DNA of 36,391 nucleotides, taken from the IMG/VR virus record IMGVR_UViG_2778261056_000002. One strand, 5' to 3'. Under the pieces are notes generated by a model. The model searched no databases. It was given only the letters and a program-made list of their open reading frames with translations, and was not told the origin of the DNA. Below, piece by piece: positions 19,416 to 32,497 of the stretch. The position numbers and the translations under genes are program-made. This stretch comes from a virus (Duplodnaviria; Heunggongvirae; Uroviricota; Caudoviricetes). Within the stretch, counting starts at the first letter, position 1. Each line of letters opens with the position of its first letter.

Positions 19416-20156
19416 TCACACCTGCGCTGCTTCTGCCTGCGCTTTTTCGAGACGTGCGCAAGCGATATCAAAATACTGGTTAGTCATTTCAATGCCGGTA
19501 AACCGTCCGCCACGGGCAAGTACAGGGATGGCGGTGGTGCCGCTTCCCATAAACGGATCGAGAACGTGCGCATCCGGTGCCAGCGGTTTAACCAGCTCGG
19601 ACATCAGCTGAACCGGCTTTGCCGTCATGTGCAGTTTTTCGGACGGGACAACACGCTGCGTAATCACACCCGGGAACGGGCCACCGTGCGGGCATTTGTC
19701 GAGTTTTCCGTTGCTGCCCCAGACCACATACTCGGCCTGATGCCGGAAATAGCCGGTGTGTGGCGCACGGGAAGCCTGCGTTTTATCCCAGACAACCAGA
19801 CCACGCCACAGCACACCACCGGCCTGAAATGCATCGGTAAGCGCTGGTAGTTGTCGCCAGTCACTGAACACCATGAAATAACCGCCGGGATTCAGCCTGT
19901 GCAATGCATGAGATATCCACATGGAACACCAGAACGCCCAGCTGCGCTGGTCGCGGTTGTCGCCGGTGAACTCGGCATACTGAGTGTGACCGACATACTT
20001 GTCCGAAGGGGCCATGCTGCGGTCTGATTTGTGTGTGCCACCACTGCTGTAAGGCGGGTCGGTAATGACGGCATCAAAACGTTCAGATAACGCTGGCAGC
20101 ACATCAAGAACATCACCGCAATACAACGTTGCGTTACCAATAATCTGTTTTTGCAT
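19416..20156 (-). CDS. DNA methyltransferase, beta-class amino-MTase (DPPY motif before FxGSG motif; probably N6-adenine)
   Basis: 246 aa; VITDPPYSS (motif IV) near the N-terminus and DPFMGSGTT (motif I) near the C-terminus; no adjacent restriction endonuclease. Confidence 0.8.
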   Translation of the reverse strand: MQKQIIGNATLYCGDVLDVLPALSERFDAVITDPPYSSGGTHKSDRSMAPSDKYVGHTQYAEFTGDNRDQRSWAFWCSMWISHALHRLNPGGYFMVFSDWRQLPALTDAFQAGGVLWRGLVVWDKTQASRAPHTGYFRHQAEYVVWGSNGKLDKCPHGGPFPGVITQRVVPSEKLHMTAKPVQLMSELVKPLAPDAHVLDPFMGSGTTAIPVLARGGRFTGIEMTNQYFDIACARLEKAQAEAAQV

Positions 20157-22805: not shown

Positions 22806-23273
22806 TTAATCAAAAAGCCCCACCTGGGTGGGGCTTTTCAGCGAAGTCTGTTTTTGTCGTCGGTGTATCAGCTGCCATGCGTACCGGTCTGAAATGCCGT
22901 AACGGGGACAGAGCAGTGCCAGCGCCTGCCGGTGTGAGCATCCGTCTTTTACATGCTGCTGTAAATCAGCCATAAAACGGGTGTTACGCAGGGCACGTAA
23001 CGCATGATCGCAACGGGGAATGTAAAACGGAGCACCGCCAAGAAAGCGGATCAGTTTGTTGATTTCGTCTTCGGTCAGCACGTCATGTAACAGGGCATGG
23101 ACACCGCCGGTGCGTTCGGCGTGTGCGCCGGTTTTACCGCTTAACGTCACGCCACCAAAAGAACGGATTAACCGGGTCAGGGCGGGGAAGCCAATCACGC
23201 TAATCAGTTGCTGCACGGAATCGGGCAGCAGTGCCTGCGCATCGCGAAGATCTGTTTCACTGAAGGTCTGCAT
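22806..23273 (-). CDS. Mor/C-family transcriptional activator
   Basis: 155 aa; position between early-operon terminator and lysis genes; sequence recognised as Mor/C family. Confidence 0.7.
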   Translation of the reverse strand: MQTFSETDLRDAQALLPDSVQQLISVIGFPALTRLIRSFGGVTLSGKTGAHAERTGGVHALLHDVLTEDEINKLIRFLGGAPFYIPRCDHALRALRNTRFMADLQQHVKDGCSHRQALALLCPRYGISDRYAWQLIHRRQKQTSLKSPTQVGLFD

Positions 23274-23279
23274 GATGGC

Positions 23280-23335
23280 GTCTCCGGTAGTAACTTACTG
23301 TTATTATAGCCATACATGATCGCCTGTACAGACCA
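23280..23335 (-). promoter_or_regulatory. Candidate promoter of the Mor/C-like gene (TATAAT -10 at about 23303..23308)
   Basis: Minus-strand GGCTATAATAACAG about 30 nt upstream of the ATG; no good -35, as expected for an activator-dependent promoter. Confidence 0.3.
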
Positions 23336-23372: not shown

Positions 23373-23711
23373 TTATTTTTTATTCTCGTTTATCAACACC
23401 AGGTATCCTCTGACATACTCCCATACTTTCTGGTTATCTGTTGGATGCACTTTTCGACAATCTATGGCTTCATTTCCATAATCGCCAATGTCAGCTTGGG
23501 CTTGTGTTAAGAGAATAACCTTCCTGAGAGCGCATCCTCTGATGGTATCCTTTGAAATATCATCCCAGCCATTCATGTATGAATAAGCCAGATTACGTTG
23601 TGCCTGATAATCGCCCTGTAATGTTTTTTTGACCAAATCTTCCTCTGAATCAGAAGCATGGGATATCCCTGTAAAACATAAAGTCAGAATAAGTAATAAC
23701 AGTTTTTTCAT
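23373..23711 (-). CDS. Secreted small protein with Sel1/TPR-like repeat; AT-rich moron
   Basis: 112 aa; signal peptide MKKLLLLILTLCFTGISHA; GDYQAQRNLAYSYMNG resembles a Sel1 repeat core; visibly AT-rich; ATG overlaps the upstream gene stop (ATGA). Confidence 0.6.
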   Translation of the reverse strand: MKKLLLLILTLCFTGISHASDSEEDLVKKTLQGDYQAQRNLAYSYMNGWDDISKDTIRGCALRKVILLTQAQADIGDYGNEAIDCRKVHPTDNQKVWEYVRGYLVLINENKK

Positions 23712-24103
23712 TTACGTCTCCTTGAATCTTTAACCAGCGCCACCATCACTCCAAAAAGCTGTTCATCCGTCAGCCATTCGATCACATGTTGCTTATACAT
23801 GTGAGATGCCAGTCCTTCTGCATACGCCCAGGAACGACCGGCATCAGCCAGCAACGCTTCAATTTTGGATAATACTGATTTTCTGCTCATTGCAACACGA
23901 GGGCGGCGACCTTTACCAGCGGGTGCCTTGCGCGGGAATCCCTGTTCGTGCATGTATTCCCGGATGATGCGCAGTTCATCGAGATTGCAGCGTGTGGTGC
24001 TGGTTTTACCGGTCAGGCGGGCCAGCGTCTGGCGATAAAGGGCATCATCCCACCCCAGATACGCCTGACCAGCTTTAATGGCCCCGATCATCTTTTTCAG
24101 CAT
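23708..24103 (-). CDS. gemA: GemA-like protein (Mu gp16 family)
   Basis: Track ORF 23708..24202; start moved to ATG at 24103 with GAGG upstream (MLKKMIGAIKAGQAYLGWDDALYRQTLARLTGKTS...). Confidence 0.65.
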   Translation of the reverse strand: MLKKMIGAIKAGQAYLGWDDALYRQTLARLTGKTSTTRCNLDELRIIREYMHEQGFPRKAPAGKGRRPRVAMSRKSVLSKIEALLADAGRSWAYAEGLASHMYKQHVIEWLTDEQLFGVMVALVKDSRRRK

Positions 24104-24362
24104 GTTTGTTATCCTCAAAACGCACGGTAAAACGTGAAACGCCAATCCCTGACAAGAACGCAGCGGCACGGTCAAGAGACAACCACGTCTTGTAATCGCC
24201 ACGGCGTTCCTGTAGAAAATAGGACACCCCGGCGCGGCGATTCACAGCGAAGAGATGATACACACCACCGAACCGCTGCACGACGAACTCATCCACGCCA
24301 CCGCTTTCAGCCTGTTGCCGAAAGGCTGCCATTCCGATTTGTTCAATCTTCATAATGACCAA
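24075..24362 (-). CDS. Hypothetical early protein
   Basis: 95 aa ORF overlapping the gemA start by 29 nt; start uncertain (MVIM or MKIEQ). Confidence 0.45.
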   Translation of the reverse strand: MVIMKIEQIGMAAFRQQAESGGVDEFVVQRFGGVYHLFAVNRRAGVSYFLQERRGDYKTWLSLDRAAAFLSGIGVSRFTVRFEDNKHAEKDDRGH

Positions 24363-24507
24363 AACACTACTTTTGGCAGACCAAAAAACATGTTTTGGCC
24401 TGCATTTGATTACTGTTTAAACAACTCGCGAAATCAGGAACGTCGAGTTTCGGTGATGGCTTTCATCGTGTTGTTGCTCCGTGATTCAGAAAATTTCATG
24501 CCGGGCC

Positions 24508-24918
24508 TCAGTATGTGAAATAGACAGTTGCCACGCCGTTATAGTGATCAAACGACACGGCGTTTACCTCATAACTGGCCGGTAGCTTCGAGCCAAGAAC
24601 GTATCCGGGCCACGTTTTCCATGGAATTTCTCTGCTCTCACTGTCGCCATATACCGTACATCCCAGTGAGCCTACAGCTTCATAAGAACGCTTACCGCAC
24701 GTTATGAACCCCAGATGTTGCTTACTGCCCTTAACAGAAATCGGGAGAGCACTGGCTGATGCGTTAGCAGCGTCCCGCTCCTGTTGGCTTGCGATATTCG
24801 CAGAGTTTGCAGCAGCTACAGCAGCCGTGGTCGCAGCGGCAGATGCCACAATAACTGCTGAAGCCTGCGTATGTTGGGTAATGGTTAGCAATGCCGCCAC
24901 AAAAATCATTTTCTTCAC
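24508..24918 (-). CDS. Secreted protein with Ala-rich linker and Cys-containing C-terminal domain
   Basis: 136 aa; signal peptide MKKMIFVAALLTITQHTQA; AGGAGG upstream of the start. Confidence 0.55.
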   Translation of the reverse strand: MKKMIFVAALLTITQHTQASAVIVASAAATTAAVAAANSANIASQQERDAANASASALPISVKGSKQHLGFITCGKRSYEAVGSLGCTVYGDSESREIPWKTWPGYVLGSKLPASYEVNAVSFDHYNGVATVYFTY

Positions 24919-24930
24919 CTGGCACCTCCT

Positions 24931-25113
24931 TTACATACCGTGATTTTTCCAGCGGTTTTGGGCTGCGCTTCTGTTTCGCCAGACACCGTAAAAACGAATA
25001 GAGGACCACTCCCTAAAACCAAGATATCTATAGCGAACAACAAGCCGATTTGAGATACGGATAAGTTGCCCCGGCTTTGCTATCAGCAGTCTTGCCTTAC
25101 GGTTTTTCATCAT
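24931..25113 (-). CDS. Small basic protein (60 aa)
   Basis: AGGAG 6 nt upstream of the ATG; stop lies just before the RBS of the next gene; Arg/Lys-rich. Confidence 0.5.
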   Translation of the reverse strand: MMKNRKARLLIAKPGQLIRISNRLVVRYRYLGFREWSSIRFYGVWRNRSAAQNRWKNHGM

Positions 25114-25283
25114 TTTGCTCTCCTGCGTTTCTTTGCTTCGCGTCGTGCAGCTGCAATACCGGTATGGCGGCGCTTTTGTGCCGGGATGATGTTGTCAGCC
25201 ATCAGGACATGTGGCTTTGCAATTAGCGCAGAAGCCCAAAAACGAGTCGGGTACGGTAACAAGCCGATACATGCCACACGCAT
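25110..25283 (-). CDS. Small basic protein (about 57 aa), absent from the ORF track
   Basis: My translation: ATG overlapping the upstream TAA (TAATG), AGGAGG 7 nt upstream, stop overlapping the next ATG; MRVACIGLLPYPTRFWASALIAKPHVLMADNIIPAQKRRHTGIAAARREAKKRRRAK. Confidence 0.4.
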   Translation of the reverse strand: MRVACIGLLPYPTRFWASALIAKPHVLMADNIIPAQKRRHTGIAAARREAKKRRRAK

Positions 25284-25912
25284 TACTCACCTCCTTTGAT
25301 GCGAATGCCAGCGGCGCGTGGCACATTAACTTCCACGATTCGTACTGTTGGTTTGTACATCTCAATCGCTGTCAGCCAGTCAGCTCCCGTCATGCGCTTT
25401 TCCGCATCGCCATTAGTCCACTGAACTGGTACACCAATAGCCTTCATCGCGATTTCTATTTCCCCGGCAATGGCGCTTTTTCCGCAACCAGTAAAACCAG
25501 AAACAACGACAAGAACTTCGCCTTTGGCTGGTTTTATTTCCCGTGCTTCCAGTTCTGCTATGCGCTTCTCTGCGGCTTCCAGCTTGGCTTCTGCATCTTT
25601 GGCTCGCATCTGCCAGTTGATAGCGATGTCGATAACGCTGTTAGCACAACTGGACTCATTCTCTTCGGCAGCTTTAGCTTCAGAAAGCTCATCAAGCAGT
25701 CCAAGAACAACAGTTGGCGTGGCGAGCGTGATAAAACGCATATTGCTCATATGCTCTTCATCGCTAACATCATCGCCAGCCTCGACCGCTGCCATGTGCT
25801 GAACATAGCCGCTATCACAGGTATTCCAGATTGCCCCTGCCTCGTGCCCCCATTCACCATGTAGCGCTTTTTCTGCCGCCTCACGCAGTGCCTGATAGTT
25901 AATTTTGCTCAC
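25283..25912 (-). CDS. Ead/Ea22-like protein with C-terminal Walker A motif
   Basis: Track ORF 25283..25930; more likely start is GTG 6 nt after AGGAGG; N-terminal ATPTVVLGLLDEL motif and coiled coil; C-terminal GFTGCGKS. Confidence 0.5.
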   Translation of the reverse strand: MSKINYQALREAAEKALHGEWGHEAGAIWNTCDSGYVQHMAAVEAGDDVSDEEHMSNMRFITLATPTVVLGLLDELSEAKAAEENESSCANSVIDIAINWQMRAKDAEAKLEAAEKRIAELEAREIKPAKGEVLVVVSGFTGCGKSAIAGEIEIAMKAIGVPVQWTNGDAEKRMTGADWLTAIEMYKPTVRIVEVNVPRAAGIRIKGGE

Positions 25913-26273
25913 GGGTTGCCTCCTGTTCATTTCCCTTGTTCAGTTTTCGTCTGCATACAGCGCAATCATCGGGGCTTTCGAAGCTGTCTGGTTCGCGTTC
26001 ACCAGAGTACATCCATCTGCAGCAGATACTGGTTACTTCATTCTCGGCAAAATAATGATATTTTTTCGACCTGGCTGGTCTGCCCCATCCAGCTGTTCTC
26101 TCGCTCACATCACGTTTTAATCCCCCCGCGCGGACCTCCTTTAGCTCCAGAAGGGCCAGCCTCAGAAGCGTCCACCACTCACTGTCTGCAACCGGCTCCA
26201 TATCAAGCGCTCTGTCAGCATCAGCAATCAGTCTGGTCAGGCTCTTATCGCTTATTCTGGTTTGCTGGCTCAC
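25899..26273 (-). CDS. Hypothetical protein with CC-x17-C-x2-C cysteine cluster
   Basis: Track ORF 25899..26312; likely start GTG after AGGAGG; CCRWMYSGEREPDSFESPDDCAVC suggests a metal-binding site. Confidence 0.45.
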   Translation of the reverse strand: MSQQTRISDKSLTRLIADADRALDMEPVADSEWWTLLRLALLELKEVRAGGLKRDVSERTAGWGRPARSKKYHYFAENEVTSICCRWMYSGEREPDSFESPDDCAVCRRKLNKGNEQEATREQN

Positions 26274-26559
26274 TGGTTGCCTCCTGTTCATTTTTTTCAT
26301 TCCGGTACACAAGAATTACGACATCTCCCCGGGTAATTACGCGTGCGGGGTCGCCCTGTTGCATATGGTCAATATCAAACGCGTCATTAAACGCATTTAG
26401 CGCCTTCGCGCGCTTGTCTTTACAACGACGTTTTTCACGCTGCTTAAAGAGCGAAGAAATCAACCATCTGAATGACATAAAAGTGATATAGCCATAACCG
26501 ATAAGCGCCAGACCTGTATTCATGGCTACATCTATCGTTATCGTTTTATCAATGACCAT
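26245..26559 (-). CDS. Single-pass membrane protein
   Basis: 104 aa; N-terminal hydrophobic helix followed by a basic stretch (KQREKRRCKDKRAK); AGGAGG 7 nt upstream. Confidence 0.5.
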   Translation of the reverse strand: MVIDKTITIDVAMNTGLALIGYGYITFMSFRWLISSLFKQREKRRCKDKRAKALNAFNDAFDIDHMQQGDPARVITRGDVVILVYRNEKNEQEATSEPANQNKR

Positions 26560-26779
26560 TGCCAGCCTCCTGTTTTGCCACTTTAAACGCCCGTAACATC
26601 GGGACCGTTTTACCGCTGATGACAGTGTTCATAACAATACCGATTCCACTGTGATGTAACGCTCCCGGTGCAACAAACAGCGCAGCATCTACAACTCTGA
26701 AGTAACGGTGGAACTCCCAGAACCAGCAAGAAATAGTGATAGTTGCGGTGACCCCATGGTCATAAAATTCAATTTTCAT
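26549..26779 (-). CDS. Hypothetical protein
   Basis: 76 aa ORF with overlapping start/stop coupling to both neighbours. Confidence 0.4.
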   Translation of the reverse strand: MKIEFYDHGVTATITISCWFWEFHRYFRVVDAALFVAPGALHHSGIGIVMNTVISGKTVPMLRAFKVAKQEAGNGH

Positions 26780-27003
26780 TTGCAGTTAAACCTTCTCTTA
26801 TGACGTTCTACGGCAGCCTTCATATTGTTGTGCACGGTTCTTTTAATAATCCGACGTCCCACACTGTCATAGAACCGCCACCGGGAAGCCCCCGGATATC
26901 CGGGGAACTCAACCACCGCGCTACCGTCATTCATCCTGTATTCGTGGCGTTCTCCGGGCGGCTGGTATATTGCTTCGGTAACACTGAGAAGTTTAAAAGC
27001 CAT
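26776..27003 (-). CDS. Hypothetical protein
   Basis: 75 aa ORF, basic C-terminus, coupled. Confidence 0.4.
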   Translation of the reverse strand: MAFKLLSVTEAIYQPPGERHEYRMNDGSAVVEFPGYPGASRWRFYDSVGRRIIKRTVHNNMKAAVERHKRRFNCK

Positions 27004-27005
27004 CG

Positions 27006-27716
27006 TTACACCCTCCCCAGTGCCAGCGGTCTGTTGCTCTGACCATTAACCCCCTGATGCAGTCTGGCGTTTTTCCCGGCGATAAAACCGGCTGTAGCGG
27101 CAAACTCTGCACCCCGACACGCTTTAGCTGTGCGCATATCCCCGTCGCGTAGCCCCTTAGTGCTGTGCAGGTTCTTTCTGTAAAGCTCAAGGCGGCTTTT
27201 TTCTTCCGGGGAGACGTCATACACCGCAATGACATCACGGGCACCAAAGACCCAGCCTTCGCAGAACTGGTCGCCACGGGCTACCCGCGTGGACGGACCA
27301 CAACGTTTGCAGTGTTTATCCTGATATTTCTTGCGCTCTGCCATCATCTGACGGGAAAGCACATCAAACGCGTAAGCCGCGATTTCCGGGCGGCTGTCAG
27401 AGCCATAAAAACGCACGTGACGTTTGAGTGAACCAGAAGCCCGGTATTCGCCGGATATGTAACACTCGACACCGAAGGCTTTACAGACCAGGTCACACAG
27501 GATGTGCATATAACGCGGCGGTGTACTGGCATCACTCGGCGCACCCGCGCTGGCAGCTTCCTGAATGTCGAACAATTCAGCGTCGTTTTCGCTGATGCCA
27601 TGCTGGCGCATATAAACCTGGGCTTTTGCAATAGCGTTAGCGGCTTCTTCCGGGCTTGATGTCCCTCTGGCAAGGCGTAACAGTTTTTTGATTTTGGCAA
27701 TGTATTTATCTTTCAT
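27006..27716 (-). CDS. Hypothetical protein with DUF2786-like N-terminal helix and Cys-rich C-terminal half
   Basis: 236 aa; N-terminal KIKKLLRLARGTSSPEEAANAIAKAQVYMRQHGI pattern. Confidence 0.5.
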   Translation of the reverse strand: MKDKYIAKIKKLLRLARGTSSPEEAANAIAKAQVYMRQHGISENDAELFDIQEAASAGAPSDASTPPRYMHILCDLVCKAFGVECYISGEYRASGSLKRHVRFYGSDSRPEIAAYAFDVLSRQMMAERKKYQDKHCKRCGPSTRVARGDQFCEGWVFGARDVIAVYDVSPEEKSRLELYRKNLHSTKGLRDGDMRTAKACRGAEFAATAGFIAGKNARLHQGVNGQSNRPLALGRV

Positions 27717-27994
27717 GGTCGTCTGAACCTCAGCATCCTGAATTCTGAATTACGCAACTTCCGGCACGGCCTTCAGGAACGTGGGGAGTTCGTTCTGGCT
27801 GCGGCGCTGGATGAACATCTGCGGTCGATTGAGAACTGGTCGCAAGACGATTAAAACAAACGATTGTCAGATTAATTTCGCGGGCGAATTTTTTTTGCTT
27901 AGCGATATTCATAAATAAACTTCCTCAGATTCAGGCGTAAGCCAGCCCCGGCGGGTTTACGCCTGTTTTAAATAACAATTAAAAACAAATTAAA

Positions 27995-28186
27995 TTAATG
28001 CGGTGCTTTCAGTGTTTCGACTTTTACGAAATAAGGCTCGACATTAATTTCAACCACACAACCACATTTAAAATCTCTGGCAGGTGAAACGGTTTTCACC
28101 ACACGACCACCACGCAACGCCGGATGTGCAGTGTGCATGAAGCGAGTCCCTACCGGATACTGCTTATTAAAGTTCTTCGCATTCAT
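27995..28186 (-). CDS. Hypothetical protein
   Basis: 63 aa ORF. Confidence 0.4.
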   Translation of the reverse strand: MNAKNFNKQYPVGTRFMHTAHPALRGGRVVKTVSPARDFKCGCVVEINVEPYFVKVETLKAPH

Positions 28187-28400
28187 GGCGTGGCTTCCAT
28201 CCTTTCAGGTGAGCATTAGCACAGAACTCGGCCCGGTGTTCCGCCCAGATGCGGCGCAGGGTGCTACACGGGCTTTGTGCTGCCTTACGCCACAGCTTTT
28301 CAGCCTCGGCATAATCGCCGCGTTGTTCTGCTCTGGACGCGCCTAGCGAATACGCCGCGCAACTATTTCCGGCTCTGTACTCTTTGATATCCTGATGCAT
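28167..28400 (-). CDS. Small two-helix protein, ANR-like (candidate anti-activator)
   Basis: Track ORF 28167..28490; internal ATG directly after the upstream stop gives 77 aa with YSLGASRAEQRGDYAEAEKLWRKAAQ and WAEHRAEFC motifs. Confidence 0.45.
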   Translation of the reverse strand: MHQDIKEYRAGNSCAAYSLGASRAEQRGDYAEAEKLWRKAAQSPCSTLRRIWAEHRAEFCANAHLKGWKPRHECEEL

Positions 28401-28401
28401 G

Positions 28402-29046
28402 TTAAACCCCTGCAATATCAAGCGGGATTGCGCGATATTCGTCAGAATCGCCGACGCGCTCATACACACGAATATAGCTCTTGCTGCCAATCACCTGGAC
28501 GGCTTCACCAATCAGCGTCATGGCGTTATTCCAGCGTTCGTCCTCAATCTCGAGGCGACGCAGGGCCAGAACGCGACCGGTGTTGATGTTGCCTTCCTTG
28601 TCCGTGCTGAATGCCTCGCTGATGATGGCTTTGATTTCAGGGCGTGCACCTTCCGTCCAGTCAGCCAGGCAATCATCAATCAGCGACTTCGCGGTCTGAA
28701 TGCGTTCATCAAACGCGATACGGTCCTGCATGGCGCGCTGAATCTTGTAACGCCCGTCAAAGCTGTAAAGCGTGATATTCCCTTTTTTACCGCCTTTCAC
28801 AGCGCCGTATTTCTCCGCCGACAGGTCAATAAATGCCTGGATATCACCAAACGCACGCAGTTTCAGTTCCCGCAGTGAGGCGGAGGCGGCAATCACCATC
28901 TCCACAAGCTCACCGACCAACTGCTCGCGGTCGCGGTCAATATCTTTGATAAGGCTTTCAGGTGTCATTACGCCACGGGCATCCACCCAGTAACCTTCAG
29001 GCGCTTGAGTTTTCGTGTATTGCTTAACTTTATTTTCAGTCGTCAT
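28402..29046 (-). CDS. Conserved Mu-like early protein of unknown function (DUF3164-like)
   Basis: 214 aa ORF; family assignment from recollection only. Confidence 0.45.
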   Translation of the reverse strand: MTTENKVKQYTKTQAPEGYWVDARGVMTPESLIKDIDRDREQLVGELVEMVIAASASLRELKLRAFGDIQAFIDLSAEKYGAVKGGKKGNITLYSFDGRYKIQRAMQDRIAFDERIQTAKSLIDDCLADWTEGARPEIKAIISEAFSTDKEGNINTGRVLALRRLEIEDERWNNAMTLIGEAVQVIGSKSYIRVYERVGDSDEYRAIPLDIAGV

Positions 29047-29075
29047 AATTAAATTACCTCAGTGATATTTACAGA

Positions 29076-29291
29076 TTAATGTGTGTTATGCGCGCAGGGT
29101 TCCACGCCAACAGAAAAAGTATCAATGCCATCAAATTCTTTACTCAGGGTTTGATTTATTACCTCCCATATCCGCTGCCTTACGCCAACCTCTTTATCTG
29201 TAAATCCTCTGTTACTAAGAAATCCCTTATTCCTGACATGAACTCTGCCGTTTTCATCGGTATAGATGAGTACTTCTAACTTAACCGCCAT
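29076..29291 (-). CDS. Hypothetical protein
   Basis: 71 aa ORF. Confidence 0.4.
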   Translation of the reverse strand: MAVKLEVLIYTDENGRVHVRNKGFLSNRGFTDKEVGVRQRIWEVINQTLSKEFDGIDTFSVGVEPCAHNTH

Positions 29292-29303
29292 TCTGATTTC
29301 CTC

Positions 29304-29528
29304 TCATTGCCATACGACGGTGCAGCCGTCGATACAGGACGTTTTCACCACGCGGCGCAGGCCGCTGAATGTCTGGACGATTTCCGTTACCGGCCATACA
29401 GGACCACCCACGGGCGGGCAGGCATAAACCACAGGTAAACGGTGATGCTGTCCCGTTACACGACCGCCGGTGGTGTGAATGGCCACACGGGCACGGGAAC
29501 GGACGGCGTTAATGGTCTGCTTGTCCAT
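29304..29528 (-). CDS. Small protein immediately after B (position of Mu kil)
   Basis: Track ORF 29304..29543; second ATG has GGAG 9 nt upstream and gives 74 aa; no sequence-level identification. Confidence 0.4.
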   Translation of the reverse strand: MDKQTINAVRSRARVAIHTTGGRVTGQHHRLPVVYACPPVGGPVWPVTEIVQTFSGLRRVVKTSCIDGCTVVWQ

Positions 29529-29542
29529 CGCCTTATTCTCCA

Positions 29543-30436
29543 TCAGTGAATTAACATTTCTGCGAATTTATCAATGGCCTGCACACTGACCGGCGCATCG
29601 CTGATATCACAAATCCGGTACACACCACGCGCCAGCTTGAACAGACGGCGGGCATTACCCAGCGAACGTGTATAAAGCGCCTCGCTGATTTCCGGTTCTG
29701 CTGCTTCCGGCATCAGCCCGGTGGCTATCTGGTTAAAATCTTCCTGCGACAGCGTATCGCCCAGGTTAAGCGCCAGCGCTACACGGCTGTATAACTGGGC
29801 GAACTCACCGCGACGTCCCTTGAGGTTAATCAGAAGGCGTGGCATACCCGCCAGGACAATCCCGATACCCGCTTTGTCATGCAGACGGCGCAGAACCTCC
29901 AGTGCGCGATAGGGGAGCAGTTCAGCCTCGTCCACCATCAGCAGGCGACCGGAATCACGCAGTTCTCGCACACATGCATCAATCAGTTCGTGGATATTGC
30001 CGCGAACTTTTACCCCCAGCTGGCGGCACAGCTCCTCAAGCAGTGTTCTGGCTGTATAGCCCGGGTCGGCTTCAATCAGGACCGCATCCCGGTTTCTGGC
30101 GGCGTATTCACGCAGAATCATTGTTTTGCCAAGACCTGCCGCGCCATACAGTACGCAGATTTCACATTCCAGATGAGCATAGGCCAACACCTCCAGTCCT
30201 TTGGCAGCCATACCGGTGGCAACAAATTTCGCTTTAATACGGCGGCTGTTTTCCTTTTCCCGCTCACGGGTCACAAAGGCAGAAATGCGTTCTTCAATAT
30301 CAGCCATATCGCCCTGATATTTACCCTGTAAATACTGGTTGATAACGGCGCTGCTACGACCAATAGCACGGGCGACGTGGGTCTGCGTATAGCCGCGACG
30401 GGCCATTACGTCATTTAATTGCGTAATTAAACTCAT
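29543..30436 (-). CDS. Transposition protein B (AAA+ ATPase with N-terminal HTH)
   Basis: 297 aa; N-terminal HTH (RRGYTQTHVARAIGRSSAVINQY) and Walker A GAAGLGKT; directly downstream of the transposase. Confidence 0.85.
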   Translation of the reverse strand: MSLITQLNDVMARRGYTQTHVARAIGRSSAVINQYLQGKYQGDMADIEERISAFVTREREKENSRRIKAKFVATGMAAKGLEVLAYAHLECEICVLYGAAGLGKTMILREYAARNRDAVLIEADPGYTARTLLEELCRQLGVKVRGNIHELIDACVRELRDSGRLLMVDEAELLPYRALEVLRRLHDKAGIGIVLAGMPRLLINLKGRRGEFAQLYSRVALALNLGDTLSQEDFNQIATGLMPEAAEPEISEALYTRSLGNARRLFKLARGVYRICDISDAPVSVQAIDKFAEMLIH

Positions 30437-30454: not shown

Positions 30455-32497
30455 TTAACGGTTGTTTGTGCCGTTTTTCTTTAAATTGCGTTCGCGTTCA
30501 GATGCGAATAAATAAAGTTCTTCTTTTTCCTTTTTCTCCGGGCGTTCCAGTCCATATCCCAGATTAAAGTCAGGCTTCTGCGTAATAGCCGGGGTAAGCT
30601 CGCGTTTAGCCTCTTCGATTTTCTGCGTGGCCCGTGCAATGCGGCCCCTGACGCGTTTCTCCAGTTTTTGTTCGATAACTGGTTTAGCGAAGGCATCAAC
30701 CTTGTTACCGTTCCAGATGGCATCGCAGATATAAGAGCCATCAGCCCGCCGGACAATGACACTGTTTGCATCATGAATATCGTAACTGACCCTGACTTCA
30801 TTCCCGTGCTCTGCGGCCAGCTCATACGAGTAATAAATATTGTTGAATAACTGAATTTCCCCGCGAAATGTTTTGCGCGTCACTTCCGGCCTGAACATTT
30901 CATGCAGTTCTTCCGGCGACAGGAAATCAATTTCAACATTCTGCTCTTTTATCAGTTTCCGGCGATACGCTGCCGGGCTGTAATGCTCGCCATCCTCTTT
31001 GCGAGGAAGGCTGCTGTGTGGCCGGTTGTTATAGCGTCTGACTTCCAGTTCTATGGCTGCCATCAGTTGCTCAAAGGTGGGGACTTCATCCCTTGCCTTA
31101 ACCTGCCGCTTTGTCAGCTCTTTCCCTTTGTGGGTGGCCTTAATGGCTGACTGCATAATCCGTTGCTGCATCATTACGGTTTCCTTGTCTGCTCCCTTTG
31201 AGCAGTACGTCTGGAAACTCAGGGCCACATCCCGGGGAATTTCCTTGTTAAGCCTTTCAATCACCCCGCGCCCCTGTGGGTTACCTGGTATCCCCGTGTG
31301 ATGCTCCACACCCAGCCGGGGCAAAATCCCGGTAATATCAGCGTCAAGCACCCGGTTTTTTTCGCCGCCCCCGTTATCGGAGTAATAAATCAGCGGTATC
31401 CCGTGCTGTGACATGCCATGACGCAGCGCATCAGCAACGGCTATCACGTTCTCCGACAGGGACAGTGACCAGCCCACAACAAAGCGCTGCCCCGCATCCA
31501 TAACCAGCGTCACCTCTGGCCGGAAAATATTGCCGGTCAGTGGGTTAAACGCGGTCATTTTCATACAGTGACCATCCCCGACCCATACCGCATTAACCGG
31601 TAATGTGCTCCAGTCGCGCCGCACAAAGGGATTGAGCGAACGCCAGGCTGAACCGGTGGAGCGGAAACGCTCTTTAACAATCACCGGGACGCTGCTTAAC
31701 ACCCGTCTGACTGCGTGAACTGAAGGCAGTGCTGCCAGCATTCCCGCATCATTCGCGTGTTTTTCATGCCACCAGGCTGAAAACTCGCGATACGCGTATT
31801 CAACGGTCGGGCGCTTCCATGAGCGATAGAACATAAAGAAATCGCTCAACCACCAGACCTGCTCCCACGGTGTTCCCTTATGATGACCGGGAGCCAGTAA
31901 CGCCAGTAACTGATTGGCATCACCGCGCGCCATCACCCAGCTGGAGTACCAGCTATCCAGGCTGCCGGTGCTGACACCGGTTCGCTTTCCCTGACGTGCA
32001 TTTGCAGTATTAGCTGCTTCGATAATGCGGTCAGGTAACGCCCCCATGCGCACACCATCAACGATGTGCTTTAACGCGGCCTTCCTGGTCATTCCGGCGT
32101 ATTCACGCAGTTTATGCACTTCAGTAGCCAGCAATATCCGCGCATCAGCGATGGCCTTTTGCTTGTCAGTCAGTGCCTGGACTTCGCGTAATGCCAGTTC
32201 CGGGCATTTGACCATCACCTCCAGTTCATCGCGAACGGCGACGTTTTTAACTGCCTTCTGCTCAACCACGGCGGGCAGTTGCGTATCTTCCAGGACCTGA
32301 TGGGTCAGGCGCTTACGTAAAACTTTCTGCGCTTCAGCGGGCAGGCAGTCGATGTGATACTCGAATGCTTTGGTGCCTTCACGCTTGCGCTTCCATTCCG
32401 GGTGCGTCTCTGTGATCCGATTGAGCGTCCAGCGCACCCCCTGAACTGTACCGGGCAAACCAGGAAGACCGGCCAGCTCATTGGCTGAATAAAACAT
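30455..32497 (-). CDS. DDE transposase A (Mu A-like)
   Basis: 680 aa; DDE catalytic core; ATG overlaps the Ner-like stop (TAATG). Confidence 0.9.
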   Translation of the reverse strand: MFYSANELAGLPGLPGTVQGVRWTLNRITETHPEWKRKREGTKAFEYHIDCLPAEAQKVLRKRLTHQVLEDTQLPAVVEQKAVKNVAVRDELEVMVKCPELALREVQALTDKQKAIADARILLATEVHKLREYAGMTRKAALKHIVDGVRMGALPDRIIEAANTANARQGKRTGVSTGSLDSWYSSWVMARGDANQLLALLAPGHHKGTPWEQVWWLSDFFMFYRSWKRPTVEYAYREFSAWWHEKHANDAGMLAALPSVHAVRRVLSSVPVIVKERFRSTGSAWRSLNPFVRRDWSTLPVNAVWVGDGHCMKMTAFNPLTGNIFRPEVTLVMDAGQRFVVGWSLSLSENVIAVADALRHGMSQHGIPLIYYSDNGGGEKNRVLDADITGILPRLGVEHHTGIPGNPQGRGVIERLNKEIPRDVALSFQTYCSKGADKETVMMQQRIMQSAIKATHKGKELTKRQVKARDEVPTFEQLMAAIELEVRRYNNRPHSSLPRKEDGEHYSPAAYRRKLIKEQNVEIDFLSPEELHEMFRPEVTRKTFRGEIQLFNNIYYSYELAAEHGNEVRVSYDIHDANSVIVRRADGSYICDAIWNGNKVDAFAKPVIEQKLEKRVRGRIARATQKIEEAKRELTPAITQKPDFNLGYGLERPEKKEKEELYLFASERERNLKKNGTNNR

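Follow-up and report, generated by a model that had tools for sequence, protein, structure and literature searches.

A probable mosaic semi-essential early region, with a DUF3164 gene in the slot of Gam, in a Mu-family prophage of Escherichia coli

The 36,391-nucleotide (nt) sequence of IMG/VR record IMGVR_UViG_2778261056_000002 (hereafter the window, meaning the whole stretch that was analyzed) is a complete Mu-family transposable prophage of Escherichia coli, inserted beside trg, and the subject of this analysis is the block of small genes that lies between its transposition gene B and gemA (positions 24508-29528; Table 1). The genes on the minus strand begin with a repressor and a Ner-like gene, which are followed by A, B, the small genes, gemA and mor, and then by lysis, head and contractile-tail genes. 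A copy 99.9% identical to this prophage is present in a chicken isolate of E. coli, close relatives occur in the enteropathogenic E. coli (EPEC) strain E2348/69 and about 12 other complete genomes, and the core of the block is carried by 58 of 5426 complete E. coli genomes. The best match of transposase A in deposited phages is only 49% identical, which indicates that no close phage has been deposited. An earlier reading made without database searches (the sequence-only reading) had described the block as an unbroken run of about 16 genes to which no function could be assigned, and had proposed it as the best candidate region for an undescribed phage-host interaction system.

Within the block, 14 credible open reading frames (ORFs) of 57-236 amino acids (aa) and a doubtful one (g6) were found on the minus strand, and the sixteenth small gene (g16) lies outside the limits first set for the run, just ahead of gemA. 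The position directly downstream of A and B on the same strand was borne out by the ORF map and by the annotation of the Prokaryotic Genome Annotation Pipeline (PGAP). The dense packing that had been described stands for the 14 credible ORFs, whose coding density is 93% when g6 is left out, and falls for g6; the overlapping stop and start codons and the AGGAGG sites are real as well, since eight junctions overlap (two further gaps are just 1-2 nt) and AGGAGG-type sites precede g10, g11, g12, g13 and g15. The run is not unbroken, because a plus-strand gene remnant and a hairpin interrupt it at 27717-27994, and it was wrong that no function could be assigned, as g1 (a homologue of Mu Kil), g4 (an ANR protein) and g12 (Ead/Ea22) demonstrate. 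Every ORF except g6 matched a PHROG family (14 ORFs, E values of 1e-10 to 1e-94). Pairwise ratios of nonsynonymous to synonymous substitution (dN/dS), available where diverged homologues exist, ranged from 0.04 to 0.46 for kil, g2, DUF3164, ANR, g5, g7, g8, g9, g10, g14 and g15, and these 11 ORFs are therefore real genes. No excess of promoter-like or terminator-like sites was detected inside the block, and the Rfam search returned nothing above noise. Gene models were corrected for g6, g8 and g11.

Table 1. Features of the block and of its boundaries, by descending position in the window
Feature	Position	Strand	Family or basis
transposase A	30455-32497	-	PGAP annotation of 99.9% identical E. 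coli locus
AAA+ transposition protein B	29543-30436	-	PGAP of 99.9% identical locus; Pfam AAA_22/TniB
g1, Mu Kil homologue, 74 aa	29304-29528	-	phrog_2679 (PHROG annotated Kil), E=1e-37
g2, 71 aa, variable slot with two alleles	29076-29291	-	phrog_7438
g3, DUF3164, 214 aa, lineage core, in Gam slot	28402-29046	-	PF11363, E=3e-81
g4, ANR-family small regulator, 77 aa	28167-28400	-	NCBIfam NF033650; PGAP name
g5, basic protein, 63 aa, isoelectric point (pI) 9.8	27995-28186	-	phrog_5591; overlaps ANR 3' end by 20 nt
GC-rich hairpin	27934-27963	.	invariant in 5 aligned loci; predicted stem in fold
g6, doubtful ORF, 60 aa	27730-27912	-	antisense to plus-strand remnant
5'-truncated remnant (45 codons + stop) of 72-aa gene	27717-27854	+	translation; alignment to L002:6223-6441
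g7, DUF2786 + DUF7168, 236 aa, basic, lineage core	27006-27716	-	Pfam
g8, 75 aa, basic, lineage core	26776-27003	-	phrog_9400, E=2e-39
g9, 76 aa, semi-variable	26549-26779	-	phrog_1001
g10, DUF4752, 104 aa	26245-26559	-	PF15944, E=2e-39
g11, 124 aa, two modules, variable	25899-26273	-	phrog_14672 N-terminus + Cys-containing phrog_2358 C-terminus
25-nt module junction AATGAACAGGAGGCAACCnGTGAGC	25907-25931, repeat 26268-26292	-	ribosome-binding site + GTG start of g12, g11
g12, Ead/Ea22-like, 209 aa, variable	25283-25912	-	PF13935, 56.9 bits vs cutoff 27
g13, 57 aa, very basic (pI 11.9), variable	25110-25283	-	phrog_13831; in ~95%-identical lambdoid/P1-like stretch
g14, 60 aa, very basic (pI 12.0)	24931-25113	-	phrog_1380; in most E. 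coli relatives
g15, 136 aa, hydrophobic N-terminal signal-peptide-like segment, variable	24508-24918	-	phrog_8805
g16, 92 aa, overlaps gemA start	24075-24353	-	phrog_7844
gemA (gp16 family), closes block	23708-24103	-	PF06252; PGAP
mor, middle-gene activator, after gemA	22806-23273	-	PF08765; PGAP

The evolution of the block was analyzed by comparing it with six annotated E. coli relatives, five other Enterobacterales loci and further IMG/VR viral contigs, and presence and identity matrices were built for 19 related loci. Kil, DUF3164, ANR, g5, DUF2786/DUF7168, g8, g16, gemA and mor constitute a lineage core that is 86-100% identical in every E. coli-type locus examined, and all of these except kil and g16 were also detected at 33-82% identity in other genera and distant viral contigs (Kosakonia, Phytobacter, Pantoea, Edwardsiella). 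The variable parts are g2, the g6 slot, g9-g15 and g18. The idea that the genes are variable cargo was accordingly correct for 24508-26779 and for the g2 and g6 slots, and incorrect for about half of the genes, which are conserved in the lineage.

It is probable that the block represents the semi-essential early (SE) region of a Mu-family prophage, that is, the distal part of a long early operon, and that it is a mosaic of core and cargo. Such an operon would run in the order ner, A, B, small genes and gemA. One part of the mosaic would be a vertically inherited core comprising the Kil homologue, DUF3164, ANR translationally coupled to g5, DUF2786/DUF7168, g8, g16 and GemA; the other would consist of a 2.3-kb cassette (g9-g15) and the small variable slots g2 and 27717-27994. 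The modules of the cassette would circulate among lambdoid, P22-like and P1-like phages, where they belong to the Ead/Ea22 neighbourhood, and would be swapped at short conserved junctions bearing a ribosome-binding site and a start codon. The resemblance to the Mu region in position and type, which the sequence-only reading had recognized, is supported by a kil homologue after B and by gemA and mor, which close the block; in place of a single phage-host interaction system there is a mosaic of independently inherited small genes.

The Kil homologue opens the block. Its family and the Mu Kil family were connected by profile-profile comparison in hhalign (probability 99.2%, E=2.6e-19), and g1 and Mu Kil have equal length (74 aa), the same position right after B and 34% identity across the C-terminal 44 aa. 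A tblastn search of g1 against deposited phages gave no match, and the homology emerged only with profile comparison. An alternative start at 29543 would give a protein of 79 aa and overlap the stop codon of B. The dN/dS of g1 is 0.10-0.15 and, by analogy with Mu Kil, it may act as a host-killing or cell-shape factor. The adjoining g2 is either 48% or 73-100% identical among E. coli relatives, was not found outside them in the 19-locus comparison, and has a dN/dS of 0.33-0.46.

The strongest lead for a host interaction in the block is the DUF3164 protein g3, which occupies the slot of Gam and was missed by the sequence-only reading. Mu Gam (PF07352) is a Ku-like DNA-end-binding inhibitor of host nucleases that shields linear DNA from RecBCD, and besides Mu the D3112-like phages and some close relatives have Gam at this place. 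Both kil and gam had been expected at this place; kil is represented by the homologue after B, whereas gam is not, as none of 20 products of the prophage matched PF07352 and the Gam hidden Markov model (HMM) gave no match, even at E<=10, when run on all six reading frames of the window. DUF3164 is a large family, with at least 3000 clusters at 90% identity and members in B3, BcepMu and Ralstonia and enterobacterial Mu-like phages, and it is present in 212 phage records, B3 and BcepMu among them. Some roseophages with DUF3164 have been reported to lack Gam, and proteomics of one such phage revealed its DUF3164 protein (PMC5488378). No functional data on DUF3164 or DUF2786 were found in the literature.

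A co-occurrence census was conducted on 80 viral loci seeded on DUF3164 and 80 seeded on Gam, each with at most 10 kb of flank. Gam was detected in none of the DUF3164-seeded loci and DUF3164 in none of the Gam-seeded ones (tblastn and HMM agree), and gemA was present in 74 and 71 of them, respectively. Exchange at this slot can be followed in two settings. Between the Pseudomonas phages H70 (Gam) and HKPH_J3 (DUF3164), both flanks of the swapped cassette are 96-98% identical at the nucleotide level, and a three-gene cassette headed by Gam corresponds to a three-gene cassette headed by DUF3164. HKPH_J3 also carries an extra DUF2786/DUF7168 gene (L015 8491-9162), with nothing at the matching place in H70 (L016), and the two DUF proteins therefore arrive jointly in that backbone. 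The second setting is provided by three Gam-bearing loci (L152, L153 and L158), which have the gene order A, B, kil, X, ANR, g5, DUF2786/DUF7168, g8, gemA, mor with Gam as X; their proteins are 37-81% identical to those of the window, and their Gam is about 70% identical to Mu Gam. ANR starts within a few nucleotides of the stop codon of X in these three loci as well as in the window and its closest relatives.

From these distributions DUF3164 may be, at somewhat less than even odds, a non-homologous stand-in for Gam, which does the job of Gam or another one in the same pathway; it would then protect the linear ends of phage DNA or otherwise neutralize RecBCD. It is also possible that DUF3164 is unrelated to Gam function and assists transposition or replication in phages of the B3/BcepMu type, the exclusivity simply reflecting alternative linked cassettes in different lineages. 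This alternative is favored by the dissimilarity of DUF3164 and Gam in sequence and structure, by the three genes covered by the Pseudomonas swap, and by the frequent company of DUF2786/DUF7168, which was found in 41 of the 80 DUF3164-seeded loci versus 8 of the 80 Gam-seeded ones. However, those 8 loci also mean that DUF2786/DUF7168 is not the determinant. The swap, moreover, affects the same slot in Pseudomonas siphoviruses and in enterobacterial myoviruses, whose backbones are unrelated, and its downstream boundary is sharp; the two genes were together in 0 of 160 loci. A review of transposable phages describes Gam as nearly universal (PMC8705779). It also mentions a gam gene in the semi-essential early (SEE) region of B3, which favors the alternative by suggesting that further candidates may exist beyond those detected here; against it, Gam was not found in the early regions of B3 and BcepMu by Pfam or HMM, and Pfam identified none among their early ORFs.

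Next to DUF3164, starting 1 nt past its stop codon, lies the ANR gene g4. The sequence-only reading had called it ANR-like, and it proved to be a bona fide member of the family, scoring 57.3 bits against the NF033650 cutoff of 32 and covering model positions 3-52 of 54. It is under strong purifying selection (dN/dS 0.04-0.08) and has a weak TPR-like helical motif; a comparison of its sequence with all PDB chains gave nothing meaningful. In the census, 23 of the 80 DUF3164-seeded and 3 of the 80 Gam-seeded loci had an ANR gene inserted between g5 and the preceding DUF3164 or Gam gene. The basic protein g5 was present in 53 of the 80 DUF3164-seeded loci, and directly follows DUF3164 (5-nt gap) where ANR is missing. 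Characterized ANR proteins bind AraC-type activators and the oligomerization domain of H-NS (PMC5570504, PMC4983702), and their binding to H-NS has been likened to that of the anti-H-NS protein 5.5 of phage T7 (PMC5570504). Because classical ANRs bind both, it is plausible that a phage ANR counters H-NS-type silencing or a host activator during early development. By analogy, this ANR might favor early expression of the phage through direct binding to H-NS or to host regulators of the AraC type, although such a role should be regarded as rather unlikely at present.

A combined proposal may be formulated tentatively, and with some doubt: DUF3164 would define a novel class of proteins that protect DNA ends or antagonize RecBCD, structurally unrelated to Gam and having displaced it in a large share of transposable phages, possibly together with g5 and/or DUF2786/DUF7168, and ANR would serve in the same operon as an early anti-H-NS or anti-activator factor. 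Several observations weigh against these interpretations. Remote homology between DUF3164 and Gam was rejected, as hhalign gave a probability of 0.3% and the two HMMs showed no cross-matches. The predicted model of DUF3164 (predicted local distance difference test score 75) resembles no solved structure, no Ku-like fold was detected in it, and Foldseek found no match for it among viral predicted structures at E<=0.001; the DUF3164 sequence, too, gave nothing meaningful against all PDB chains. With a net charge of -5, DUF3164 is just mildly acidic, and it is therefore not an obvious DNA mimic. The unit swapped in Pseudomonas is three genes and not one, and the census was seeded on DUF3164 and Gam themselves, many of its loci being near-duplicates; because of these two points, and because the evidence is positional, caution is needed in reading DUF3164 as a substitute for Gam. 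The annotation of the 36-kb prophage contains no AraC-family gene, unlike the classical setting of ANR. PADLOC detected nothing significant for 18 window proteins, the only match listed being noise (E=0.0033, 15 bits), and it is from the layout only that we infer transcription of the block as a single operon.

The remaining core genes are g7, g8 and g16. A Cys cluster had been noted in g7, which is a DUF2786/DUF7168 protein; a zinc-binding cluster was rejected as the cysteines are not conserved within the family, and g7 yielded nothing meaningful against all PDB chains. Although g8 was not annotated by PGAP in the closest E. coli genomes, it is 93-100% identical in E. coli relatives and 33-65% identical in other genera, with a dN/dS of 0.15. 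g16 is conserved in the E. coli lineage and is 98-100% identical in 11 relatives. The 154-nt gap ahead of it (24354-24507, minus strand) ends in a long hairpin, GGCCAAAACAUGUUUUUUGGUCUGCCAAAAGUAGUGUUUUGGUC, which stops 3 nt short of the g16 start codon; g16 has no obvious Shine-Dalgarno site, and the gap as a whole folds with an unremarkable energy (z = -1.3). This hairpin may be involved in translational or transcriptional control.

The genes of the variable cassette show a different history, most clearly at the gene boundaries. The junction AATGAACAGGAGGCAACCnGTGAGC occurs at the starts of both g12 and g11, and its 15-nt core has two exact occurrences versus 0.07 expected. Across more than 200 lambdoid phages, the 45-nt stretch around 25880-25925 is conserved at 93-96% identity, and the junction is therefore likely to be a recombination linker for module shuffling; a repeated junction with flanking identity is the classic mark left when modules are exchanged at gene boundaries. 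The junction also results in a common C-terminal motif, NEQEAT, in the genes that precede g12 and g11. In addition, positions 25079-25582, which include the 3' half of g12, are about 95% identical at the nucleotide level to lambdoid, phiV10 and P1-like phages.

In the cassette, g9 is 69-100% identical in relatives and is also present in the Gam-bearing locus L153. The DUF4752 family of g10 adjoins ead/Ea22 genes in Shiga toxin (Stx) phages; the gene is intact in the window and is annotated as frameshifted in the 99.9% identical GPEC349-628 prophage (L001 6246-6561). The sequence-only reading had taken g10 for a membrane protein, a case that was considered weak since its hydrophobic segment reaches a maximum Kyte-Doolittle 19-residue average of just 1.24. 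g11 appears to combine two PHROG families. Its start is most likely GTG 26273, judged by a PHROG alignment that begins exactly there, behind an AGGAGG site, and with this start the apparent 136-nt gap is closed. PGAP calls only the last 69 aa of g11 in the nearest genome, which is what had left that gap; in other E. coli relatives the match extends over only about 40% of the gene, and in E2348/69 two short genes are annotated in the interval. g12 has an N-terminal Ead/Ea22 domain, an acidic coiled coil and a C-terminal domain with a GxxGxGKS motif, from which a Walker-A protein had been concluded; a P-loop NTPase was rejected because this domain (~75 aa) is too small. Comparison of g12 with PDB sequences produced only noise at E<=1, with no likeness to the C-terminal domain of lambda Ea22 solved by nuclear magnetic resonance. 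Ea22 has been reported to favor lysogeny in lambdoid phages (PMC7093339). Finally, g15 is absent from E2348/69 and STEC346, and its sequence gave nothing meaningful against all PDB chains.

The interruption at 27717-27994 corresponds to the g6 slot, which in relatives contains DUF7448, two other genes, or an intact opposite-strand gene. The intact form, of 72 aa and with its own upstream region and a terminator-like hairpin, is found in E2348/69 and STEC346, and the window retains the truncated remnant. On the plus strand, TGTTTTAAAT comes after the conserved GC-rich hairpin, an arrangement that resembles a terminator for the opposite-strand gene. The intact gene is convergent with early transcription and could be a moron or regulator expressed in the lysogen; PADLOC showed no family match for the E2348/69 copy. 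g6 had no Pfam, PHROG or NCBIfam match, its substitutions were too few to judge selection, and it is probably spurious.

An explanation of the whole block as an anti-defence island, most of its small proteins inhibiting host immunity (restriction-modification, CRISPR or abortive infection), appears improbable. The early-expressed position adjoining replication genes would suit it, as would a Gam slot that is itself a counter-nuclease position and the lack of a known function for most of the block families, and the hypervariability of 24508-26779 and of the two smaller slots among close relatives is typical of counter-defence loci. However, about half of the genes show purifying selection and conservation that extends to other genera, Kil, ANR and Ea22 are assigned otherwise (Ea22 as pro-lysogenic in the report mentioned above), and no homology to characterized inhibitors was found, in an analysis that did not include a search of a dedicated anti-defence library. 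That the run is mostly prophage DNA in decay, its short ORFs being spurious, is very improbable: g6, the frameshift of DUF4752 in the closest relative and the truncation of the opposite-strand gene would fit it, but the PHROG matches of 14 ORFs, dN/dS values well below 1, intact start-stop couplings and the completeness of the surrounding prophage in transposition, lysis, head and tail genes argue against it.

Some neighbouring features were also observed. Between gemA and mor, a 112-aa protein with a signal peptide is encoded at 23373-23711 (minus strand), and this slot is variable: an unrelated 477-nt gene occupies it in E2348/69 and AZ146, and it is empty in others, a pattern typical of a lysogenic-conversion or exclusion moron. 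The best sigma-70-like match of the region (23303-23330, minus strand; TGTACA, 16 nt, TATAAT; 10/12) is just upstream of mor, which may have its own predicted promoter. In the late region, a stand-alone DNA methyltransferase gene (19416-20156, minus strand) lies between a DUF1804 gene and the large terminase gene, and is a candidate for self-protection against restriction.

The SE regions of transposable phages have long been known and are mostly uncharacterized, and roughly 1% of complete E. coli genomes, that of the EPEC reference strain E2348/69 among them, harbor this type of prophage. The map of core and cargo should help experiments to target the right genes. The displacement of Gam by DUF3164 provides a large DUF family with a specific hypothesis, protection of ends or inhibition of RecBCD, that can be tested at low cost, and an ANR gene conserved among the early genes of phages would extend the role of its family beyond the virulence regulation with which it has been linked to date.

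Compared with known systems, the block is closest in layout to the SE region of Mu, in which 14 ORFs, kil included, are co-transcribed with A and B (PMC3325207). Both follow A and B on the early strand, start with a 74-aa Kil, end with gemA and then mor, and are dense in small, mostly uncharacterized genes. The differences are that no block protein besides Kil, GemA and Mor is similar to a Mu SE protein, that DUF3164 takes the slot of Gam, and that Mu has no counterpart of the ANR gene, the DUF2786/DUF7168 gene or the lambdoid-type Ead/Ea22 cassette. DUF3164 and Mu Gam share the slot, are mutually exclusive and are exchanged in otherwise conserved backbones, whereas they differ in length (214 versus 174 aa) and have no detectable homology, neither a Ku-like nor any other known fold being detected in DUF3164. 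With B3 (Beetrevirus) and BcepMu (Bcepmuvirus), the block has in common a DUF3164 gene between B and gemA (60-69% identical), which in B3 is directly followed by a DUF2786/DUF7168 protein. These two phages have another transposase type, the B3/Tn552 family being named in the review of transposable phages (PMC8705779) and that of BcepMu being annotated as a Tn552/IS1604 rve transposase; they have no homologues of Kil, ANR and g5, and BcepMu possesses SSB and HU genes instead. Like Aar, the ANR of enteroaggregative E. coli, g4 is a small protein, and it is above the curated NCBIfam threshold; unlike the classical ANRs, it is a conserved early gene of transposable phages, coupled to g5 and 77 instead of 63 aa long. 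The families of g10-g14 (DUF4752, Ead/Ea22 and neighbours) are those of the lambdoid exo-xis/Ead-Ea22 region, with stretches of about 95% nucleotide identity and a shared junction. The C-terminal domain of g12, however, does not match the solved one of lambda Ea22, and the version in the block sits inside the early operon of a transposable phage.

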